Assembly: GCA_000004695.1 (NCBI GenBank)
Contig: CM000150.2
Coordinates: 3,520,001 to 3,584,000, forward strand
Length of the DNA stretch: 64,000 bases
Reading direction: 5' to 3'
DNA from: Dictyostelium discoideum
Taxonomy: Eukaryota
A program made the translations under genes and the position numbers. Position 1 is the stretch's first letter. Every line of letters begins with the position of its first letter. Of the stretch, positions 37,332 to 59,853 are shown piece by piece. The notes below the pieces were generated by a model. It saw only the letters and a list, made by a program, of their open reading frames with translations. It was not told the origin of the DNA and ran no database searches.

Positions 37332-37509
37332 CTCTCAATTAACACTTTAACATTCTAATTTATTAAATTAATTTTAGAGAAGAGCAGAAAAGAAAGCATA
37401 TGAAGAAAAACAAAAAATGGAGGATATTAAAAAATATACATCAATTATGAAAACTGATAACATGAAATTTAATAAATACAATCCAACTGATGAAGATGAT
37501 TTTATGTAA
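36678..37509 (+). CDS. CCDC25 (coiled-coil domain-containing protein 25, NFACT-R/DUF814-like); 3 exons 36678..36702, 36791..37254, 37378..37509
   Basis: [37 protein letters not shown]...NSIQGCK...[13 protein letters not shown] is near-identical in pattern to human CCDC25. Confidence 0.85.
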
Positions 37510-37554
37510 TCAAATTCATTTTAAAATTTTCTTAAATTTTCTAATTAATTTTAC

Positions 37555-37591
<37 letters not shown>

Positions 37592-37996
37592 AAAATAAAT
37601 TTTTTTTTTTTTTTTTTTTTTCAAATCGCTCATGTTTCATTTTATTTGGAATGGGAAATCCTTGGGAGGAAAAAAAAAAAAAAAAAAAATGAAAAAATAG
37701 GCGAAAAAAAAAAAAATAAAAAAAAAATAAAATAAAAAACAAACCCAATCACGAATGATTGGTGGAATTTCTTATAAAAAAGAGTCAGTTCATTTTTTTT
37801 TTTTTCTTTTTTTTTTTAAAAAAAAAAAAATAAAAAATAAAAATAAAAATAAAAAAAAAAAACATACTAAGATTTTTTTTTTCTAAAAAAAAATTTTTTT
37901 TTTTTTTTTTTTTTTTTTTAATCAGTTCCCGCTCTCGCACATAAAAAAAAAAAAAATACGTATTGATCGCGTAGTTTAGTATTTATTTATATCATT

Positions 37997-38070
37997 TGTA
38001 TATATTAGTATTATATTTAAATTAAATAATTTTCGAGATAAGAACCCTTATTTTCATATATTATTATTTA
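37997..38070. promoter_or_regulatory. conserved promoter block of MSMO1 paralog A (tatattagtatta...TCGAGATAAGAaccCTTATTTTCAT); partner copy at 39527..39600
   Basis: An ~75-bp block 60-90 bp upstream of each MSMO1 ATG is conserved between the paralogs. It contains a GATA-type AGATAAG core. Confidence 0.5.
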
Positions 38071-38145
38071 TAAAAATAAATTAGTTTGTGGAAATCAAAA
38101 AAAAAAAAAAAAAAACAAAAAAAAAAACAAAAATAAAATAAAATA

Positions 38146-38395
38146 ATGGAATCACTTTCATTAAAATTTATTGAACCATATTGGTTCAAATTTGTAGATT
38201 ATTATGGTGAAGACTTTCTTATTACCTATGGTACATTCATTGCCCACGAAGTCTTTTACTTTGGTTCATTCATTCCATTCTTTTTATGTGATTTTATGCC
38301 ATTCCTTCAAAAATATAAAATCCAACCAGTAAGTTTTTTTTTTTAAAAAAAAAATTATATATATATATATAAATAATAATATTTCTAAAACTAAT

Positions 38396-38431
<36 letters not shown>

Positions 38432-39074
38432 TATTATTTTATAGACAAAAAAAAATGAATGGAAAACTCAATTTAATTGTATTTTCAAAGTTTTAATGAC
38501 ACATATTTTTGTTCAATTACCAATGATGTATATCTTTGATCCAGCAATTAAAGCAATTGGTTTATCAGCAAGAGCACCATTACCATCAATTCCTTATTTA
38601 ATTTTCACAATCGCATGTTGTTTCCTTATTGAAGATTTCTATTTCTATTGGGTACATAGAGCATTACATCACGGATTTTGGTATAAACATATTCATAAGG
38701 TACATCATGATCATGCTGCACCATTTGGTATGACTGCTGAATACGCTCATCCATTAGAAACCGTTATTTTAGGTGTTGGTACAGTCATTGGTCCATTCCT
38801 TTTCTCACGTGATCTTTTCACTCTTTGGGTTTGGTTAGGTACTCGTCTCTTCCAAACTGTTGAATGTCATTCAGGTTATGATTTCCCATGGAATCCAACA
38901 AAATTAATTCCATTTTGGGGTGGTTCTCATTTCCATGATTTCCATCATGAAACTTTTGTTGGTAATTACTCTTCAACCTTTACTTATTTAGATAAAATTT
39001 TTGGTACATCTGATAAATATTATTCAAGAAAACAAATTAGAGATTCTAAACTTGCTGCTGGTAAATCTGAATAA
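38146..39074 (+). CDS. methylsterol monooxygenase (C-4 sterol methyl oxidase, ERG25/MSMO1) paralog A; 2 exons 38146..38328 and 38445..39074
   Basis: Histidine boxes HRALHH and HKVHHDH, plus FGMTAEYAHPLE and HDFHHETFVGNYSSTFTYLDKIFGT, match MSMO1. Confidence 0.85.
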
Positions 39075-39526
39075 AAAAATAAAAAAAATAATAAAATAAA
39101 ATAATAAAAAAATAAAAAAAAATAAAAAAATAAAAAAAATTAAAAAAACAATTGCACACACTAAAAAAAAAAAATTTTAAAATTTAAGATTTGATCAGAA
39201 ATTGATTTTTTGGAACATGCAACGTGTTCTATTTACAAAACGAAATATTATCAAAATAAATATAAAATAAAAAATAAAAAAAAAAAAAATGAAAAACAAA
39301 AAACAAAAATAAAAACCAAAACAGATGGAGGTGACACATTTATTAGCCGTCAACCTTAGAATTTTATTTTTTTTATTTTTTTTTTTTTTATTTTTTTTAT
39401 ACCATTTTTTTTTATTTTTTTTATACCATTTTTTTTTATTTTTTTTAATTTTTTTTTTTTTTTTTTTTTTTTTCTTTTTTGGAATCAATAATAATAAAAA
39501 TAATATTTATTTATATATTTAAAAAC

Positions 39527-39600
39527 TATATATTAGTATTATTTAAAAAATAATTATCGAGATAAGATCATCTTATTTTCATTTATTATTTTATTTATTA
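39527..39600. promoter_or_regulatory. conserved promoter block of MSMO1 paralog B (second copy)
   Basis: See the entry at 37997..38070. Confidence 0.5.
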
Positions 39601-39642
39601 ATTATTTATTTTTTTTGAAAAAAAAAAAAAAAAAAAAAAAAA

Positions 39643-39833
39643 ATGGAATCACTTTCATTAAAATTTATTGAACCATATTGGTTTAAATTTGTAGATTATT
39701 ATGGTGAAGAATTTTTACTCACCTATGGTACTTTTATTGCTCATCAAGTTTTTTATTTTGGATGTTTCATTCCATTCTTAATAGCCGATTTTATTCCTTT
39801 CTTTAGAAAATATAAAATTCAACAAGTAAAGTA

Positions 39834-39879
<46 letters not shown>

Positions 39880-40529
39880 TAATAATGATTAAAAATAAAA
39901 AAAAAAAGACTAAAGAGAATGATTGGAAATCTCAAACATATTGTGCAATTAAAGTTATATTGACACAAGTACTTATTCAATTACCAATGATGTATATATT
40001 TGATCCAGCAATTAAAGCAATTGGTTTATCAGCAAGAGCACCATTACCATCAATTCCTTATTTACTATTGACACTTGTATCAAGTTTTATTATTGAAGAT
40101 TTTTATTTCTATTGGGCACATAGAGCATTACATCATGGTATTTGGTATAAATATATTCATAAGGTACATCACGATTATGCATCACCATTTGGTATTACAG
40201 CTGAATACGCTCACCCATTGGAAACCATTATTTTGGGTGTTGGCACTGTTATTGGTCCATTCCTTTTCTCACGTGATCTTTTCACTCTTTGGGTTTGGTT
40301 AGGTGTTAGATTATATCAAACTGTTGAATGTCATTCAGGTTATGATTTCCCATGGAGTTTTACAAATTTAATTCCATTTTGGGGTGGTGCTCCTTTCCAT
40401 GATTATCATCATGAAGTATTTATTGGAAATTATGCTTCAACTTTTACTTATTTAGATAAAATTTTTGGAACTTCTGGAAAATCTTATTACTCTAGAATTG
40501 AAAAAAAATCAATTAATAAATCTGAATAA
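39643..40529 (+). CDS. methylsterol monooxygenase (ERG25/MSMO1) paralog B, tandem duplicate; 2 exons 39643..39825 and 39909..40529
   Basis: About 85% identical to paralog A at the protein level, with the same intron position and phase. Confidence 0.85.
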
Positions 40530-41058
40530 TTTAATATGATTTATTATTTTAAATTATTTCATTTTATTTATTTAATATTAAATTAAATAGATCACTTTAT
40601 AAATTTATTAAAAAAAACTTATCCTTTTTTTTTTATTTTTTTTTTATTTATCCACCCATCCTTATTTTTTTACAAATTTCCGAACTTATATTATATTTGG
40701 TTGTGAATATTTTAAACATAAATTATAATTTGTTTTATTTTTTTTATGTTTAAAATATTTTGTTTTTTTTTTTTTTAAGATTTATGATTTTTTTTGATCA
40801 TGATTTTTTTTTTTTTTTTTTTTGTCTTCTGCTATCCATTTTTTTTTTTTTTTTTTTTTTTTCATAAAATATCAAATAATTTTTTTTCTTAATGAGGTAA
40901 AAAACACTACAAATTACCTTTTTTTTTATTTATTTTTTTTTTTTCACTTTTTTTTAATTTTTTGTTTTTGCATTTTTTTTAATTTTTTTTATTTATTTTT
41001 TATTTTTTTTTTTTTTTCTTTACTTAATTTAAAATCAAAAAATTAAATTTCAACACAA

Positions 41059-41960
41059 ATGAGCTCAATAGAAGAGATTGACACTGATGAAACATTCACA
41101 TCAGATTATGTGAGTGCTAGAAAAGATGAAGTTGATGATATTATAACAGCAACTACAATTGCACAAAAAAAAATGGAGAATTCAATTTTGGAAAAATTAA
41201 ATTCAACTGAAAATGGGTATGTATATTATAATATAATAATAATTATTAAATATTAAATATTAATAGATTTAATTTTTTTTTTTTTTAAAAAAAAAAGTAA
41301 TATAATTGAAAAAAAAAAGATATTAAATTTTTTAATGAATGGTATTGAAAAAATACCAATGTCACATCAAGGTTTAGATTCAAGTAAAGTTTGGATATCA
41401 TTTTGGATATTGAATGGTATGGATATGTTGGATAGTTTAGATAGTTATCCAAATATATCAAGTAGGGCAAGTAAATATTTATCAATATTACAAAATGATG
41501 ATAATAATGGTAATAATAATAATAGGGAGAATAATCAAAATGGTGGTGGATTTGGTGGTGGTAATTCACATACAAGTCATGTGGTCAGTACATTTGCAGC
41601 GGTTTCAGCACTTTATGTAATTGGTACAGAGGAATCTTATAAAACTATTGACCGTGAAGCAATGTATAAATTTTTAATGAGGATGAAAACAAAAGAGGGT
41701 GCATTCACAAGTGAGGATGGTGGTGAGTATGATTCTAGAACAACCTACTGTGCAATTGCAGTTGCCTCAATGTTAAATATTTTAACAGCAGAGCTTGAAA
41801 GAGGTGTTGTCGATTTCTTATTATCTTGTCAAACTTATGAGGGTGGTTTTGGTGCTTATCCATTCAACGAAGCTCATGGCGGTTATACATTTTGTTCAGT
41901 TGCTGCATTATCAATTTTAAATAGTTTACATAAAATCGATATGAATTCTTTACATGTAAG

Positions 41961-42019
<59 letters not shown>

Positions 42020-47456: not shown

Positions 47457-47461
<5 letters not shown>

Positions 47462-50400
47462 AGTAGTTGGTGTTATATGAGCAGTATGGTATGAAGTGTT
47501 CCGGGATGTTTATGGTCATGAGTTTCGAGTTCCAGTTGTGGCTGAATTTTTCGAGTCTTCTTTTTATTGATGCGGTCCGATTGATTGACTCTCGGTTATC
47601 AGTGCATCTTAGTTCTTGACGTAGTTGTTTTTCTACTATCTTTCTTGTTCTATCCCATTCGGCATCTCTCGCTTTTTTGATTTTATGAATTATTTGGTTC
47701 TCTGTTATTATTGTAGTGTTATCGTTGAATTTTATTTGATTTCTTCTGTACCATATCGATTCCATAATGGCTCCTATCAGATTTGATGAGAATGGTGTGA
47801 GTAGTTTTCCGAGAACTTTTTCGCTCCATGGACCGTGGTAAGTGTTGTTGGAGTCTTTACAGACCTTTTGATAGATTGAGTCGATATTCTGTTTTATTGA
47901 TTTGCATTCGAAGAAGATGTGCATAGACGATTCTTCTTCTTTACATGAGTGGCAATTCTCCCCATGGTGTTTTGGAAGTGCCTTGAGTAGATATCTCCAT
48001 GCTAAGTCTCTTCCTTTGATAGTTGTGATTGATCTGGCTTCTCTGAATGGTAGAATTGGGTGATTAATGTTCTTTTGAATCAGTTTTTGACCTGTTGTTG
48101 GCTGGTGTTTGTTCCATCCCTTGTATTTGATATCCATCATGTTTCTATAGATTACTTTTAATTTTTGTTTGTTTTCGTATTTGGGTTTGACTTGGTTTAG
48201 TTTGAGAGTTATTCGCTCTCTTGGGTGGTGCAACAACTTCCAGGCTTTCCAGCATTTGATGTGAATCCTTGATAGTGAGTTTTCTTTTTCCGACTTCCAG
48301 ACTTCCATATGTGGAGGGCAGTTCTGGTCGTCTTTTTCTCTGAGGTATTGTTCGTATATCCATGCTTTCTGGGCATTGGATCTGGTTGCCATATTCCAGA
48401 GTTCCAGGCCTCCAATTTCATAGTCTCTTCTGCTCCTTTCTTTTGAGATAGCCCACCTGTCCCCTTTGAATAACATGTTGGCATTAACGTTCTCCAGTTT
48501 CTTTATGTCATTTATTTCGTTGATGTATAGTTGGAATGTTAGTTGGGACAGCAGGTATGATTTGAGGATTGTGATTCTACCTTTTAGCGTTGATGACACG
48601 CTCGAATAACATTTTGTGAGGTTTTCCAGTTTGTTCACCGTATCATCTACTTTGCTTATTACACCTTTGCGGTTGAAGAAAAAGCCAAGATATCTTTCTT
48701 CTTCTTTCGCCCCAATTGTCTTATATTTGGTCTTTATCTTTGGGTTTTTAGTGATGCACACACATTTATTATCGTTTATTTTTGCTGCTGTGGCTTGGCA
48801 AAATTTTATAACTTTCATATCCATTTTATCTGCGTCATCTATGTTACTGGCTAGTGTGACTGTGTCGTCTGCATATTGTCCAATCTTCATCGAATTGTTC
48901 TGATTGAGTTTTATGCCTATTATGGTATTGTCTTTTCTTATTGATGTTGATAAGCATTCACATACTATAGCGAAGAGAGTTGGTGAAATTGGGTCGCCCT
49001 GTTTTGTACCTCTTCCTGCTCTGAAGGATTCAGAGAGTTGTCCATTTACCATGACCCTTATGTTGGTGTTCGTTAACATGCTTAGTATTGTGTTTGTTAT
49101 TTTCCGAGGGAACTTTAGATGGTTTAGAGTCCTTATTAACGCTTTATGAGATATTGAATCGAAGGCTTTTTCGAAGTCATAAAAGGTGATTATCGTGTTT
49201 CTATCACTTTTTTCCATTGCTAAATCCAAAGCTATAATGTTGTTGTGGAGTAGCCTTCCTGGTATAAAACCGTTCTGGTACTTTGAGATTATGTTTGGCA
49301 GGATTTTTAGTATTCTATTGTTGATTATTTTTGAGTAGATTTTGTAGTCTACGTTGAGTAACGTTATTGGTCTTCTGTTTGAGATTTCCAAGACATCCCC
49401 TTTACCTTTGTATATTGATGTAAGGATACCGTTCTTGAATTCTGTTGGAATTTCATTGTTTAAAAAGAAGTTGAATAGTTCTGTGAGGATTGGAATTAGT
49501 TTGTGTTGGTGGATTTTATAGAATGAAGATGTTATTCCATCTTCTCCTGGTGATTTACCTTCTGCTATCTTTTCTATTGCTAGCTTAACCTCATATTCTT
49601 CGATTCTGTCTTCCATCTCTGTTAATTTTTTTTTATCTATTGGTGGGTTCCAGGTGCTTAGAAGTTCTGTATGTGTTTCTTGGTCGCATTCTTTCTCTTT
49701 GAAGAGTGTCTCGTAATATTTTCTGAAGCAATCTGTTATTTCTTTTTGTTCTGTTTCGATTTCTCCATTGGATGGGTTCTTTATTCTGTGAATCTGGGAG
49801 CTCGAGTCTCTTTTTTTAAGAATAGATGTAAGGAGATTTGATGCTATTTCTTTATTGTTGATGTAGTTGATTGAGCTTTTGATCATTCTGTCTATTCTTT
49901 CTTCTTCTTGAAGTATTGTTATTTCGTTCGATATTGTTTCTTTTTCATATTTGTTTTTTGTTTTTGTGTGTTCATTTGCTAGATTTGATAGCGTTTTTTT
50001 TCTCTCTAGTATTCTTTTCTTTTCTGTTGTAATGCATTGTTTTTTTATTTTTTTTTTGAACTTAATCCAGTATTCCGTTATGTTAATGTTTTTTCTTTTG
50101 GTTTCCTGGTAGTGGTCGATTATTTTTTCTATCTTTTTTATTGTTTTATCTTCTTTAATTATTATTGAGTTCATTTTCCATAGGGGTGATTTGTATATTT
50201 TTGTGAAATTTGGTATTTTGAAATCCATCACTACTATGTTATGGTCTGATTTGTTTATTTTATCTATTATCTTGTACGAGTGATTGAGTTGGTGCATCTT
50301 TGTTGATAAGAATGTTCTATCGATTAGTTTATCTTTGAAGGTTGTTTTAGTTGTTGAATTTGGTAGTATTTCGGTGAGTCCTACTTCCATCATTAGGAAT

Positions 50401-50888
50401 TCTATTGTTTCATTTTCTGTGAATTTTCTCTTATCGGATGATCCATCTTTGAACTTGATTTTTGCATATTTGTTGATGTTAAAGTCACCAGTAACTATGT
50501 CTGCCTGTTCTAGATCTTCAAGGGAAATATTGTTTGAAAACCATCCTTTTCTTCTGTCATATGAGGCTGGTGCATAGATGCAAATTATGTTGATTTCCAT
50601 ATTGTTTAGAATTGCAGTAAATTTTAAGATTCTGCCTTCTTTTTCTTCCAAGTTTTTAATTTCTATTTGTTCTAGGTGATTTATTGCCATTACTCCTTTT
50701 CCTCTTGCTTCTTTTCCTTTTCCTCCTGTTGAGTAATGGTTTTTGATTTGCGCTAGATTTTGATCCTTTTTTAGATTTGTTTCTGTTAGTATTGATATAT
50801 CAGGTTTTATTAGGTTAATTGTATTTTTTGTCTGATTCATGCTTTTGATTGTTGAGCAACCTTGGCAATTCCAGGTCATTATTTTTAT

Positions 50889-50891
<3 letters not shown>
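47457..50891 (-). CDS. non-LTR retrotransposon ORF2: AP endonuclease + reverse transcriptase + C-terminal Cys/His motif
   Basis: The N-terminus MIKIMTWNCQGC...ILTETNL is an exo-endo-phosphatase. The RT blocks are RPITLLNVDYKIYSKII, FYDFEKAFDSISH and QYADDTVTLA. The HHGENCHSCKEEESSMHIFFEC motif follows. Confidence 0.85.
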
Positions 50892-53399: not shown

Positions 53400-56300
53400 C
53401 TCGATGAAGGTGATGAGTCCAAGTCAAAGATTTTAAATAAAAATTATAAAATTTCACAATATCATCACCTTGAGGATAATGATTACCCAGTGAACAAAGA
53501 TTCACTTTATACTCTTAACTCTTTTTATAATCAAAACATTGTTAAACAGTTACATCAACAAAGCCAGCAACATGATGTTCATAAAAACATCAACAAACTT
53601 AAAGAATACGTCAAAGACTCATATGGTATAAAACTAGTTCCTGATACAACCGTTCCAATTCCAAAAGCTGTTGAATCAGAGATGAAGTATAAACCACAGA
53701 AGATTGAATTTAATACTCCAACAGAGTTAACAAATGTTCAAGATAAAAACTATACTGTTAACATATTCAATCGTCCAAAGATATTAAATTCTAGTAAAGA
53801 ATTAATTAATGATGAAGAAGATGAATTGCTTTACACAATTAAATTCGATAAAGAAACAAACAAACCAATCATCTCATTATTACATAGTACTGGTACAAGT
53901 GATACTGCTCTCATTCCGACTCTAAAATGTTTAATCGTTCCAAACAGAGAAAACATGGATAAACCCAAGATTATAATTAACTCTCATTCCAAAGAAAAAC
54001 AATTCAAATTAATTCTCGATACTGGAAGTAATGTTAGTTTAATCAATAAGAGGTTGATTTCAAAAGATATGAAGAACCACGTTCACAAAACGAAAGCCAA
54101 GATTAACTTCCCGCTACTAGACGTCAAAGAAGAGTTTGTTGAACAAATCAATATACAAGTTAACAATGAAATTCATAACTTCTTTATTATAGAATTGGAT
54201 ATCATTGATGTACTTTTCGGTAATGATATCCTTAAGGACTCTATCATTAACCAAAAAGATAAAATAATCAAGTTGAATAACAGTACATACAAAATTAATT
54301 ATCAACAGTCGAATCAATTACATTGTAATGTAAAAGCTCCAAGAAAACATGTTACCGTATCCAATGATAATCAGTCACAGTCACATAATCTACTAGATGA
54401 TGATGAAGATATCAAAGAACAAGTTACAAAGTTTGTTGAAAGCATCCCATCACAACTTTGTGATATACTGGTTAAAACTAATCCAGAAGAAGAAGAGATA
54501 CAAGCAGTACGTGATTTCATTAATGATTCATTCGAAGATGTTATAGTAGATAAACTTCCTGATATTCCAGATCAGATTAACAATTCCAGAAGAGGTAATA
54601 TCATACATAATATCATAATAAAGAAAGATCAAGATGTTGAACCAACAAAGAAACAAATCTATTATTCAACAGATGATCATAAGAGACATGTCGAAGAAAT
54701 GGTTATCAAATTTATAGATTTAGGTATTATCAAAAGATCAGAATCAAATTACTCATCTCCAATCATGTTATTAAAGAAGAGAGATTCATGGTGTGTAGTC
54801 CACGACTATCGTCAACTAAATAAAGTCACTGTTAGAGACGATCATCCATTCACTCCGGTTGATAGTCTTTTAAATCAATGTAAAGATTCAAAGCTTTTCT
54901 CAAAGTTTGACATGATTATGGGTTATTTCCAAGTGTTAATTAATCCAGAACACGCAAAGTACACCGCTTTCATTACACATATTGGTAAATTTGAATATAC
55001 TAGAATGCCACAAGGTTTAGTCAACTCTCCATCCACATTCGCCAGATTGATGGTCGAAATATTTGGAAAAATCAAAAGTTTATTACAATACTTTGATGAT
55101 CTTTTGGTTCATTCAAAACTCGACTACATGGTACATTTCATTGAAATAATTAGAATGCTTCTATATTGTAGAAAGTACCTATTATTCATTTCAAGAGAAA
55201 AGAGTGAAATGTTAAAGACTGAAGTAGATTTCCTTGGTTTCCACATTCATAAAGATGGTATATCTCCAAGAGCTGCAAAGGTTAGAGCTATCTCTGAGTT
55301 ACCTGAACCAAGAAACGCCAAAGAAGCTGAAGCTGCATTAGGTCTTTTTGGATTCTTCAGGAGACACATTGAAAATTACGCTGAAAAAACCTATCACCTT
55401 TCCAAAGAATCAAAAGGAAAAAACAAGAAAACACTTTCTGATGAATCACTCAAAGAATTCAATAATCTAAAGAAAGAGTTTGAAGGTGAAAATATTGTCG
55501 CTATTCCAATTGAACAAGATAACTCCATACCAATAGATATCGAAAAGGTTAAAGCATCAACAGACATGCCAATCCATTCAGATAATAATAATCTAAACAA
55601 TGGTAGTTTTCACTTGTATTGTGATGTTAGTGATAAAGCATTATCAGGTGTATTATATCAAATTCAAGGTAATAAATTCAAAGTCATTTGGTTTCACAGT
55701 AGAAAACTTACTGATACTCAAAAGAGGTACAGCATAGGTGATAGAGAGTTCCTTTCAATCATTGATTCTCTAAAGAAGTTTCAACATTTATTAATTGGTA
55801 AAAAGGTTTCAATCTACACTGATCACCAAAATCTTACATATATTATCAATAAGTCAAACGATAAACCGTTCACAAAGAGACAAGATAATTATATGAAATA
55901 TATTAAAGAATTTGATTATGAATTAAGACATATAAGTGGTAAAAAGAATGGTATAGCTGATTTTTTATCTCGTAAATATGATAATTTCCAATGGGATGAA
56001 TCGTTTTTAAATAAAATTAAGGAAGAACAAATCAATTCTCAATGGCTATTAGAGATGAAAAAGAATCCAAATTTATGCATTGAAGAAATTAATGATATCT
56101 GTTACCTTAGTGAAGATGGGTTCAAGAAATTAATCATCATAGATAAAGAAACTATTCATACCGTCATTAGAGAATATCACGATACCAAATATAGTGGTCA
56201 TCACGCTTTAGATATCACATACAATAATATAAGACAAGATTACTATTTCAAAGAAATGTTTTCTATTATCAAGAGGTACATAAAGTCTTGTGCAACATGT

Positions 56301-57683
56301 CAATTGAACATTAACCGTAAAGATAATGGTATACTCCAAAGTTTAGAAATTCCCTTTGAAGTTTGGAGAGATATATCAATCGATTTCTTATCGCTACCAA
56401 AAACAATGTATGCAATAAACGGATTTACAGTTGAAGTCGATCAAGTTTGTGTCATTGTTTGTAGATTATCTAAAATGGTTCATATAGTTCCATGTCATAA
56501 GACAATAGATGCCCAACATACCGCTCAATTATTGTTGAATCATGTGTTCAGACTCCATGGTTATCCAAGAACAATCGTCTCCGATAGAGATCCAAGATTC
56601 CTTTCAGAAATATGGGAGAGATGGGCAAAGACGATGGATTCTAAACTCAAGATGACTGTGGCACACAGAGCACAAGCTGATGGTCAAACTGAAAGAATGA
56701 ATAGAGAAATTATTAGAATATTAACTAAAGCCTCAACAGAGTATGGGGAGAATTGGTCAGATATCATTCCACTTATTGAATTTGCAATGAACTCATCAAT
56801 GAGCAAGTCTACAAAGATGTCACCATTCCAAATCGTTTATGGATTCAATCCACCAACTCCCGTTAATCATTTCAATTCATTAACAAAGACTCGTATACCA
56901 ATGAGCAACATCAAAAAGATTGTCCGTGATAATATACTAGATGCTCAAATCAATGCTCAAAAGTATTACAACCGAGGTCGTGGTGATGTTATCTTCGTAG
57001 TCGGAGAAAAGGTGATGGTTAAAAGAAAATTCTTCCAAACTAATCTTTCAAAAGATCTAATCTCTCACAAACTTGAATCCAAGAATTGTGGACCATTCAT
57101 AATCACTGCCGTTCATGGTAATAATGTAACACTCGATTTAGTAGGTTATCCAAAGAAACACAATGTGTTCAACAAAGATCAAATCGTAAAACTATACGAG
57201 GACAGTGAGTGGTTAAGAGAAGAGATATCGATGCCGGAACCTGAGGAGATGGACGAAGCAAGTTACGAAGTTGAAAGTATTCTCAATCACGATAAAGTCA
57301 AAAAGATGTACCTAGTGAAGTTCAAAGGTTACCCAGAACCTGAATGGATCAAAGAAGTCGATACAGACTGTGAAGAGTTAGTCAGAGAGTATTGGAATAA
57401 CGTGCAGAAGAAACAATTGAACTCAAGAAGAGAAAGAGAGAATGTAACTACAGAAGCCGTTGAGCCAATTGTGTCACCTCCACTCTCCCAAGAAGTTCAA
57501 AGTTCTCAAACATTGCAACCAATTACTCCAAGACAACAAAACTCCATCTCAAATCAAAGAAACCAATCAAAGAAAAGAAAATCAAGAAATCAAAATACTT
57601 CAAGTGATGATGATGAACTTGATCTTAGTTTACAAATTAAAACAACTAGATCAGGAAGAAAAGTTACACCCAAGAGTTTATAG
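53400..57683 (+). CDS. retrotransposon Pol (aspartic protease LILDTGSNVSLIN, RT, RNase H, integrase HHCC + DDE, C-terminal chromodomain), same frame as gag behind a TGA
   Basis: RT motifs YFDDLLVHS; integrase motifs HHALDITYNNIRQDYYFKEMFSIIKRYIKSCATCQ and VSDRDPRFLSEIWERW; chromodomain YEVESILNHDKVKKMYLVKFKGYPEPEWIKE. No ATG follows the TGA. The first alternative start is GTG at 53490. Confidence 0.8.
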   Translation, partial: LDEGDESKSKILNKNYKISQYHHLEDNDYPVNKDSLYTLNSFYNQNIVKQLHQQSQQHDVHKNINKLKEYVKDSYGIKLVPDTTVPIPKAVESEMKYKPQKIEFNTPTELTNVQDKNYTVNIFNRPKILNSSKELINDEEDELLYTIKFDKETNKPIISLLHSTGTSDTALIPTLKCLIVPNRENMDKPKIIINSHSKEKQFKLILDTGSNVSLINKRLISKDMKNHVHKTKAKINFPLLDVKEEFVEQINIQVNNEIHNFFIIELDIIDVLFGNDILKDSIINQKDKIIKLNNSTYKINYQQSNQLHCNVKAPRKHVTVSNDNQSQSHNLLDDDEDIKEQVTKFVESIPSQLCDILVKTNPEEEEIQAVRDFINDSFEDVIVDKLPDIPDQINNSRRGNIIHNIIIKKDQDVEPTKKQIYYSTDDHKRHVEEMVIKFIDLGIIKRSESNYSSPIMLLKKRDSWCVVHDYRQLNKVTVRDDHPFTPVDSLLNQCKDSKLFSKFDMIMGYFQVLINPEHAKYTAFITHIGKFEYTRMPQGLVNSPSTFARLMVEIFGKIKSLLQYFDDLLVHSKLDYMVHFIEIIRMLLYCRKYLLFISREKSEMLKTEVDFLGFHIHKDGISPRAAKVRAISELPEPRNAKEAEAALGLFGFFRRHIENYAEKTYHLSKESKGKNKKTLSDESLKEFNNLKKEFEGENIVAIPIEQDNSIPIDIEKVKASTDMPIHSDNNNLNNGSFHLYCDVSDKALSGVLYQIQGNKFKVIWFHSRKLTDTQKRYSIGDREFLSIIDSLKKFQHLLIGKKVSIYTDHQNLTYIINKSNDKPFTKRQDNYMKYIKEFDYELRHISGKKNGIADFLSRKYDNFQWDESFLNKIKEEQINSQWLLEMKKNPNLCIEEINDICYLSEDGFKKLIIIDKETIHTVIREYHDTKYSGHHALDITYNNIRQDYYFKEMFSIIKRYIKSCATCQLNINRKDNGILQSLEIPFEVWRDISIDFLSLPKTMYAINGFTVEVDQVCVIVCRLSKMVHIVPCHKTIDAQHTAQLLLNHVFRLHGYPRTIVSDRDPRFLSEIWERWAKTMDSKLKMTVAHRAQADGQTERMNREIIRILTKASTEYGENWSDIIPLIEFAMNSSMSKSTKMSPFQIVYGFNPPTPVNHFNSLTKTRIPMSNIKKIVRDNILDAQINAQKYYNRGRGDVIFVVGEKVMVKRKFFQTNLSKDLISHKLESKNCGPFIITAVHGNNVTLDLVGYPKKHNVFNKDQIVKLYEDSEWLREEISMPEPEEMDEASYEVESILNHDKVKKMYLVKFKGYPEPEWIKEVDTDCEELVREYWNNVQKKQLNSRRERENVTTEAVEPIVSPPLSQEVQSSQTLQPITPRQQNSISNQRNQSKKRKSRNQNTSSDDDELDLSLQIKTTRSGRKVTPKSL

Positions 57684-59523: not shown

Positions 59524-59770
59524 TGATGTTTTTTCTCTTACTGATTATTTTTTCCTTTTTTTTTCAATTTTGCTTCGCAAAATTTTCAAAAAAAAGAAAA
59601 AAATAAATTACAATAAAATAAAGAAATAAAGTAGTTTACTCTAAGTGTATTTTATTTTATTTTTTTTAAGTCTTTTTTTTATATGAAAAATGAAATAATC
59701 AAATAAAAAAAGTGTTGTTGTTCTCACAAAAACCGGATAAAGCAAATTTAAGTTGTATCTCATCAAAAGT

Positions 59771-59843
59771 GCCTGGATGGCTCAGTAGGCAGAGCGAGCG
59801 GCTGTTAACCGCTAGGTCCATGGTTCGATCCCATGTCTAGGCG
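59771..59843 (+). tRNA. tRNA-Asn (anticodon GTT), 73 nt
   Basis: Acceptor stem GCCTGGA/TCTAGGC with one G-U pair. D-arm GCTCAGTAGGCAGAGC. Anticodon stem-loop AGCGG-CTGTTAA-CCGCT with U33 and GTT at positions 34-36. The T-arm CATGG-TTCGATC-CCATG is the B box. A T-run follows. Confidence 0.9.
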
Positions 59844-59853
59844 ATTCTTTTTA
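59844..59853 (+). terminator. Pol III terminator T-run (ATTCTTTTT) after the tRNA
   Basis: Seen directly. Confidence 0.6.

Follow-up and report, generated by a model that had tools for sequence, protein, structure and literature searches.

Two adjacent genes for putative C-4 methylsterol oxidases (SMO) lie on chromosome 1 of Dictyostelium discoideum AX4, and a block of sequence is shared by their upstream regions. What does this block do, and does it act as DNA or as RNA? The question arises from a preliminary description of a 64,000 nt stretch of that chromosome (G+C = 23.6%), referred to here as the window. The block was there taken for a conserved promoter element of about 75 bp with a GATA-type core, retained by both copies of a tandemly duplicated gene and pointing to their common regulation. 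The tandem duplication and both genes are already annotated, and are ordinary in themselves. The block is less so: comparative sequence analysis identifies its core as a covarying hairpin, and we give about even chances to the proposal that this hairpin is bound by a protein in the 5' leader of the mRNA, where it would control translation or stability.

Local alignment recovers both blocks where they had been reported and extends them to about 100 nt each. The word TATATATTAGTATTAT occurs at 37999 and 39527, TCGAGATAAGA follows at 38033 and 39557, and CTTATTTTCAT comes after each. Common occurrence of the motif in unrelated A/T-rich intergenic DNA had been named as the observation that would undo the claim, and within the window it was not found. 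Aligned with each other, the blocks score 107, against a maximum of 51 among 2106 control segments from the window (z = 13), and the long shared words TCGAGATAAGA and TATATATTAGTATTAT, together with the pattern GATAAG-N3-6-CTTAT, occur in the window at these two sites only. The heptamer AGATAAG does match the GATA-factor consensus WGATAR, as had been proposed, at 38036 and 39560; taken alone, however, it carries no statistical weight, the bare heptamer showing no enrichment in the window (4 observed, 7.2 expected). Throughout the D. discoideum complex, each of the two upstream regions contains an island of about 110 nt that is conserved near-perfectly amid indel-rich poly-A/T tracts. Within the island, the differences that distinguish the two copies have become fixed in each of the four species, so that recent gene conversion can be ruled out.

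The conserved core of the block is CGAGATAA-N6-17-TTATTTTC. It occurs 13 times in 160.8 kb, made up of the window and related loci. In each of the 13 cases it is in sense orientation and begins 66-193 nt before the ATG of an SMO orthologue. Both gene copies carry it in D. discoideum, D. firmibasis, D. dimigraforme and two assemblies of D. citrinum, as do the single-copy genes of D. purpureum, Polysphondylium violaceum and Tieghemostelium lacteum. The octamer CGAGATAA turns up just twice more in these sequences, each time within a long open reading frame and unaccompanied by the second half. When a covariance model was built from the core sites, these sites and one mRNA contig (L010, discussed below) scored 37-46 bits, and the next best match 17.9 bits. 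Judged by its presence upstream of single-copy orthologues, the core is older than the duplication, and its conservation indicates constraint.

This distribution bears on the simplest account of the block, namely that the duplication, or gene conversion, left it behind as neutral sequence without function. Silent divergence between the copies is moderate (synonymous divergence, dS, 0.29-0.75 by method, with 0.41 by NG86 and 0.75 by maximum likelihood (ML); nonsynonymous divergence, dN, 0.10-0.12), and 175 of the 210 identical residues use identical codons, so that some non-coding similarity could survive. The start of the coding sequence beside the block is likewise near-identical, with 19 of the first 20 codons the same. 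The account is nevertheless contradicted by deep cross-species conservation. The core stands upstream of single-copy orthologues whose dS to D. discoideum ranges, depending on method, from 0.55 to above 3; differences between the two blocks have been fixed in four species; and the neutral comparison fails, as introns past their first 27 nt or so and 3' flanks can no longer be aligned between the copies. A functionless remnant is accordingly very improbable.

The two halves of the core can pair to form a small stem-loop. Its lower stem, GAGAUAA/UUAUUUU, includes two G·U pairs and is invariant, as are the C residues that flank it. The upper stem differs by lineage: G...C in copy 1 (loop AACC), GA...UC in copy 2 (loop UCA), AUUA...UAAU in D. 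purpureum, AUAAU...AUUAU in T. lacteum, and UA...UA followed by a second short helix in the P. violaceum clade. In an eight-sequence alignment the ten-pair helix is 97.4% paired, while controls with the 3' partner displaced by 1-3 columns reach 50-64%. For covariation the helix scores 0.254 and the displaced versions at most 0.043; none of 500 shuffles attained the observed score. Three helix pairs show changes on both sides; pair 13-29, for example, is GC in four sequences, AU in two and UA in two, and is broken in none. Within the D. discoideum complex, substitutions inside the element are confined to the loop, and are C/T in both copies.

An estimate of how often such inner complementarity arises by chance is provided by a metagenomic scan for the near-identical pattern CGAGATAA-N6-17-TTATTTTCA. 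Among the 120 matches listed, at least two inner Watson-Crick pairs occur in 8 and at least four in 1; the same count, read off the alignment, is at least four in D. purpureum, five in T. lacteum and two in the P. violaceum clade, where the folds add 3-4 further pairs past a one-base bulge. None of the 120 listed matches encodes an SMO homologue by tblastn and none looks dictyostelid by composition or context; the known mRNA contigs are not among them. The hairpin is the minimum-energy fold in every lineage, at -4.5 to -6.0 kcal/mol at 37 C. At 22 C, the growth temperature, the sense strand folds with -7.4 to -10.0 kcal/mol (z -2.8 to -4.2). Against the sense range of -4.5 to -6.0 kcal/mol, the antisense strand reaches -1.5 to -2.9 kcal/mol, about half as good, a bias due to the two conserved G·U pairs. 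An additional outer helix, AAAUAAU with AUUAUUU, was proposed by RNAalifold for the D. discoideum complex and was dropped because D. purpureum, P. violaceum and T. lacteum lack it.

The part of the element that never varies also invites a reading at the level of DNA. D. discoideum has many GATA-type factors. One of these zinc-finger proteins might bind AGATAA, with the same or a second factor on TTATTTTC, the whole forming a proximal promoter or leader element for both paralogues. AGATAA(G) fits WGATAR, is invariant in all lineages and is the sole sense-strand WGATAR in either upstream region; the full invariance of both 8-mers is typical of protein-DNA recognition. The match is as perfect as in known GATA sites such as the targets of GtaC, for which chromatin immunoprecipitation sequencing in Dictyostelium yielded a GATA-like motif (PMC4506546). 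A WGATAR site alone, however, does not account for the conserved sequence, because TTATTTTC and the covarying inner pairs are also constrained. Unlike plain GATA sites, the element pairs with a complementary half at a variable distance, and dimeric or composite sites seldom show a spacing as variable as the 6-17 nt between these halves. A plain site leaves unexplained the compensatory inner pairs, the conserved G·T positions and the invariant second half. The heptamer is not enriched in the window, the orientation is sense in 13 of 13 cases, and the element is transcribed in a related species. A GATA-type site is thus a possibility, but rather an unlikely one.

Transcription of the element is established by environmental sequences. 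Twelve environmental contigs encode a protein (P0127) with 90% identity to the enzyme of P. violaceum, and six of them (L010-L015) were examined. These lack the 76-nt intron of the P. violaceum gene (L004) and have a common 3' end, which identifies them as spliced mRNAs. Their leaders, 330-421 nt long, are free of ATG and homologous to P. violaceum upstream DNA. They include the element at -133, and the mRNA reaches about 200-290 nt upstream of it. The element is transcribed in this relative of P. violaceum. Further evidence comes from the avoidance of start codons: the 150 nt upstream of the hairpin contain one ATG in five lineages where 11 are expected (Poisson P about 2e-4), the expectation being taken from the other permutations of A, T and G over the fixed 150-nt window. 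Such avoidance is consistent with a leader that is scanned. A long T-run immediately precedes the conserved island of each D. discoideum copy, and Dictyostelium transcription classically starts just past an oligo-dT run. We infer that the element lies in the leader of the D. discoideum mRNAs as well. Because it is inside a spliced mRNA in a relative and ATG is avoided upstream of it in several lineages, it is probably not promoter DNA upstream of the transcription start. Of the earlier proposal, common regulation through a promoter element, the first part survives as a fair inference, since both copies share the constrained core; the promoter part probably does not.

The same observations weigh on a third alternative, in which GATAA is a non-canonical TATA-like box and TTATTTTCA an initiator, so that the block would mark a transcription start, possibly an alternative one. 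GATAAAT, as found in D. purpureum and T. lacteum, is one base from TATAAAT, TCA fits the initiator-like motif YYA, and the orientation is fixed. The distance from GATAA to CA is 25-28 nt in D. purpureum, P. violaceum and T. lacteum, but only 19-20 nt in D. discoideum. The mRNA contigs extend well above the element, ATG avoidance continues upstream of it, and a core promoter does not account for the covarying inner stem. This alternative is improbable.

A protein-bound leader hairpin is favoured because a single hypothesis covers the invariant halves, their variable spacing, the compensatory pairs, the G·U positions, the strand bias, the orientation and the transcription. The mechanism may be envisaged as follows. 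(i) A small stem-loop would sit in the 5' leader of C-4 methylsterol oxidase mRNA. (ii) Its invariant lower stem, together with the flanking C residues, would most likely be the recognition surface for a trans-acting factor, probably a protein. (iii) The upper stem and loop would need only to keep the hairpin closed. (iv) The hairpin would set the translation or stability of the mRNA. (v) It would already have been present in the common ancestor of dictyostelid groups 3 and 4. (vi) At the tandem duplication in the D. discoideum lineage it would have been copied along with the gene, and both paralogues would therefore be under the same post-transcriptional control. The action as RNA, the binding of a protein and the signal are all inferred here from sequence; plausible candidates for the signal are sterol, oxygen and iron, the enzyme being a di-iron, O2-dependent one of sterol synthesis. 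By analogy, the hairpin might be the operator of a post-transcriptional switch specific to groups 3 and 4, in which an RNA-binding protein reads the lower stem and couples the translation or stability of the mRNA to sterol, oxygen or iron status, with a logic like that of the iron-responsive element (IRE) and possibly a wider regulon. This extension is speculative, and we would not expect it to hold in full.

Several points weigh against the leader hairpin. No more than about four independent lineages contribute to the covariation signal. The stem is weak and rich in A/U, and in A/T-rich DNA self-complementarity readily arises by chance. A lower stem that never varies is equally expected of a DNA-binding site, and AGATAA is a perfect GATA-factor consensus. 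Placement in the leader in D. discoideum is supported indirectly, by ATG avoidance and by the position after the T-run. The environmental leaders end at low-complexity runs, so their ends need not mark the transcription start, and an additional start downstream of the element is possible. Finally, the covariance model finds no match upstream of the SMO genes of Cavenderia fasciculata, Heterostelium album and Acytostelium subglobosum. From the matches in the one set of species and their absence in the other, the element appears to have arisen in the branch of the Dictyostelia that comprises groups 3 and 4. Two candidates outside this branch, both missed by the covariance model, were set aside as too weak: TCGAGATA in H. 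album, on the minus strand 10 nt before the ATG (L009:2985-2991), and GAGAGATAAG-N21-TTATTATTAC in A. subglobosum at -156 (L016:2843-2884). They may be degenerate group 2 relatives of the element, or chance.

How does the hairpin compare with regulatory systems described elsewhere? A scan of 37400-41100 with Rfam returned no family, IRE included, at E <=5, the output being poly-A/T low-complexity noise far below gathering scores. The IRE, a hairpin of 5' untranslated regions bound by the iron regulatory protein, is similarly a short (about 30 nt), weak, sequence-specific leader hairpin in the mRNA of a metal-dependent enzyme; reading by a protein is presumed in the present case. The IRE has a CAGUGN apical loop, a C bulge and a 5-bp upper stem. 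The SMO hairpin has none of these; its loops (AACC, UCA, AUAU, GUAU, ACA) are unconserved, and recognition would run through the lower stem with its G·U pairs. Membership of the IRE family was accordingly ruled out, on the missing CAGUGN loop and C bulge and the missing Rfam match. In fungi and animals, ERG25/MSMO1 is controlled through the sterol regulatory element of SREBP/Sre1 and the TCGTATA site of Upc2, so that, in principle, some conserved cis element would be anticipated here. Neither of these two consensus motifs is present in either upstream region, and a hairpin is unlike the E-box-like or zinc-cluster sites of sterol regulation. Dictyostelium sterol genes are known to be regulated, for instance upwards on bacteria (PMC2443395); sterol-related proteins change under hypoxia, and an SREBP-like response in Dictyostelium has been called unclear (PMC12750705). 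In the literature on these genes, on Dictyostelium GATA motifs, on SREBP and sterol synthesis and on sterol-gene regulation, no description of the upstream element was found, and the hairpin appears to be a new case of a conserved leader stem-loop.

Table 1. Coordinates of the hairpins, upstream blocks, putative leaders and gene models of the two D. discoideum SMO copies, and of the core at single-copy orthologues.
Feature	Position	Strand	Details
Copy 1 hairpin core, CGAGATAAGAACCCTTATTTTC	38034..38055	+	5' arm 38035-38042; loop 38043-38046 (AACC); 3' arm 38047-38054; -4.6 kcal/mol at 37 C, -7.4 at 22 C, z about -3; covariance model 38.9 bits
Copy 2 hairpin core, CGAGATAAGATCATCTTATTTTC	39558..39580	+	5' arm 39559-39567; loop 39568-39570 (TCA); 3' arm 39571-39579; -5.2 kcal/mol at 37 C, -8.4 at 22 C; covariance model 44.1 bits
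Copy 1 upstream block, ~100 nt, common to copy 2	37976..38074	+	Local alignment; near-invariant across D. discoideum complex
Copy 2 upstream block, common to copy 1	39500..39601	+	Local alignment
Putative copy 1 5' leader	37920..38145	+	Directly after T-run 37894-37919, ATG-free
Putative copy 2 5' leader	39481..39642	+	After T-run 39450-39480, ATG-free
Copy 1, DDB_G0269788 (Q55D54)	38146..39074	+	Translation identical to database protein; 270 aa
Copy 1 splice model		+	Exon 1 38146-38328; intron 38329-38444, 116 nt; exon 2 38445-39074
Copy 2, DDB_G0270946 (Q55D52)	39643..40529	+	Translation identical to database protein; 267 aa
Copy 2 splice model		+	Exon 1 39643-39825; intron 39826-39908, 83 nt; exon 2 39909-40529
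Core at single-copy gene, D. purpureum	L005:4808	sense	
Core at single-copy gene, P. violaceum	L004:4870	sense	
Core at single-copy gene, T. lacteum	L007:4935	sense	

The two genes have the arrangement first described for them. They are two-exon paralogues about 1.5 kb apart (1497 nt start-to-start, with 568 nt between the stop codon of copy 1 and the ATG of copy 2), and each is interrupted after codon 61 by a GT..AG intron of phase 0. The same intron position is found in D. purpureum, P. violaceum, D. firmibasis, C. fasciculata and H. album. Protein identity had been put at about 85%; the value is 79% (210 of 266 aligned residues), and it is the coding sequences that are 84.6% identical at the nucleotide level. 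That the pair is a tandem duplication of an ERG25/MSMO1-type gene is borne out by adjacency, common strand, shared exon-intron layout and the presence of one copy in outgroups.

Both paralogues carry the fatty-acid hydroxylase domain PF04116 (in copy 1 at residues 118-249, E 1.4e-26), which is also precomputed for all homologues. The three histidine boxes (HX3H, HX2HH, HX2HH) are present as HRALHH at 132, HKVHH at 145 and, at 225, HDFHH in copy 1 or HDYHH in copy 2. Domain and boxes are shared with ERG25, MSMO1 and plant SMO. Full-length relatives at 45-59% identity come from oomycetes, fungi and red algae and are named methylsterol monooxygenase or C-4 sterol methyl oxidase by their sources, names that are automatic; UniProt lists both copies as 'putative methylsterol monooxygenase'. 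Searches of PDB and NCBIfam with both proteins gave no match, hence no sequence-related solved structure. The annotations conflict: the C-4 methylsterol oxidase assignment of UniProt, NCBI and the homologue names stands against a table, in the one relevant paper found to give the gene identifiers, in which both genes appear as LhsA and LhsB, putative sphingolipid hydroxylases, on the basis of BLAST alone (PMC11402645). The activity of the D. discoideum pair is a prediction. The putative sterol assignment is better supported than that of a sphingolipid hydroxylase. More than one C-4 methyl oxidase gene is likewise found in plants, which also use cycloartenol and have SMO1 and SMO2 (PMC2817430). 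Unlike that ancient split, the D. discoideum pair is a young, lineage-specific tandem.

The age of the duplication can be bracketed by comparison with related species. The tandem pair occupies the syntenic site in D. citrinum (two assemblies), D. dimigraforme and D. firmibasis, and an NFACT-R gene lies upstream of the SMO locus in all species compared. D. purpureum, P. violaceum and T. lacteum have one SMO copy, with no second tblastn match in those loci. To D. purpureum, dS by NG86 and ML respectively is 0.70 and 1.14 for copy 1, and 1.13 and 2.26 for copy 2. Because the dS between the paralogues is below that of either copy to D. purpureum, the duplication is estimated to be younger than the D. 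purpureum split, or about as old, and to precede the radiation of the D. discoideum complex. Dating by a neighbour-joining protein tree was set aside in favour of dS, since the placement of D. purpureum was unstable: it grouped with copy 2 in 66%, with copy 1 in 27%, and the copies were sisters in 6%. The tree lacks resolution because amino-acid change sped up after the duplication.

The two copies have since evolved at different rates. Between D. discoideum and D. firmibasis, copy 2 has a dS of 0.40 and a dN of 0.024, and copy 1 a dS of 0.20 and a dN of 0.016; G+C at third codon positions is 0.131 in copy 2 and 0.178 in copy 1. As copy 2 evolves faster and has the lower third-position G+C, copy 1 would be the more highly expressed and more ancestral-like gene. 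Over codons 1-22 and about 85-113 the two copies have almost every codon in common, perhaps as a result of gene conversion in the past or of strong constraint. Directly after its T-run, at 37920-37978, copy 1 has the specific GC-containing elements AATCAGTTCCCGCTCTCGCACAT and TACGTATTGATCGCGTAGTT, which are absent from copy 2 and kept in D. firmibasis, D. dimigraforme and partly D. citrinum. A CATCAGT motif is likewise present in the D. purpureum upstream region (L005, about 4719). Together, these elements and this motif suggest that copy 1 has retained the ancestral leader.

Other features of the flanking DNA may be recorded. About 390 nt upstream of the copy 1 ATG, at 37745-37762, is a perfect 7-bp inverted repeat, CCAATCA-CGAA-TGATTGG, which is inconsistently aligned across relatives. 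Two islands in the spacer between the genes are conserved throughout the D. discoideum complex. One, at 39211-39231, is GGAACATGCAACGTGTTCT, a hairpin or palindrome of 9 bp (-8.4 kcal/mol, z -2.6) that lies 137 nt past the copy 1 stop codon; the other, at 39336-39362, is GACAC..TTAGCCGTCAACCTTAG. They may serve as signals for the 3' end of copy 1, or regulate copy 2 from upstream. The T-rich tract that precedes copy 2 contains, at 39381-39445, two copies of the 24-nt direct repeat TTTTTTTTTATTTTTTTTATACCA and a degenerate third; the repeat is absent from the four other genomes aligned. The next gene downstream, from 41059-41964 and onward on the plus strand, encodes a prenyltransferase beta-subunit-like protein (PF00432), so that an isoprenoid-related gene directly adjoins the sterol oxidase genes. 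T. lacteum has the same neighbour (L007:6066-7591). A Pfam survey found no further sterol gene within the window. Farther along are two retrotransposon open reading frames, at 47457-50891 on the minus strand (1144 aa, RVT_1 domain only) and at 53490-57683 on the plus strand (1397 aa, with reverse transcriptase, RNase H and integrase domains). A tRNA-Asn(GTT) gene at 59770-59844 (+) is near both, the usual tRNA-associated insertion pattern of Dictyostelium retroelements.

The regulation of sterol synthesis in the Amoebozoa is essentially uncharted, and no cis element has been defined in the literature searched. A short element that is conserved in groups 3 and 4, and kept by both young paralogues at a rate-relevant, O2- and iron-dependent step, gives experiment a definite starting point: it lends itself to mutation, to the capture of a binding factor and to a genome search for co-regulated mRNAs. 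It also illustrates that, in very A/T-rich DNA, a match that looks like a GATA site can be one arm of a hairpin.

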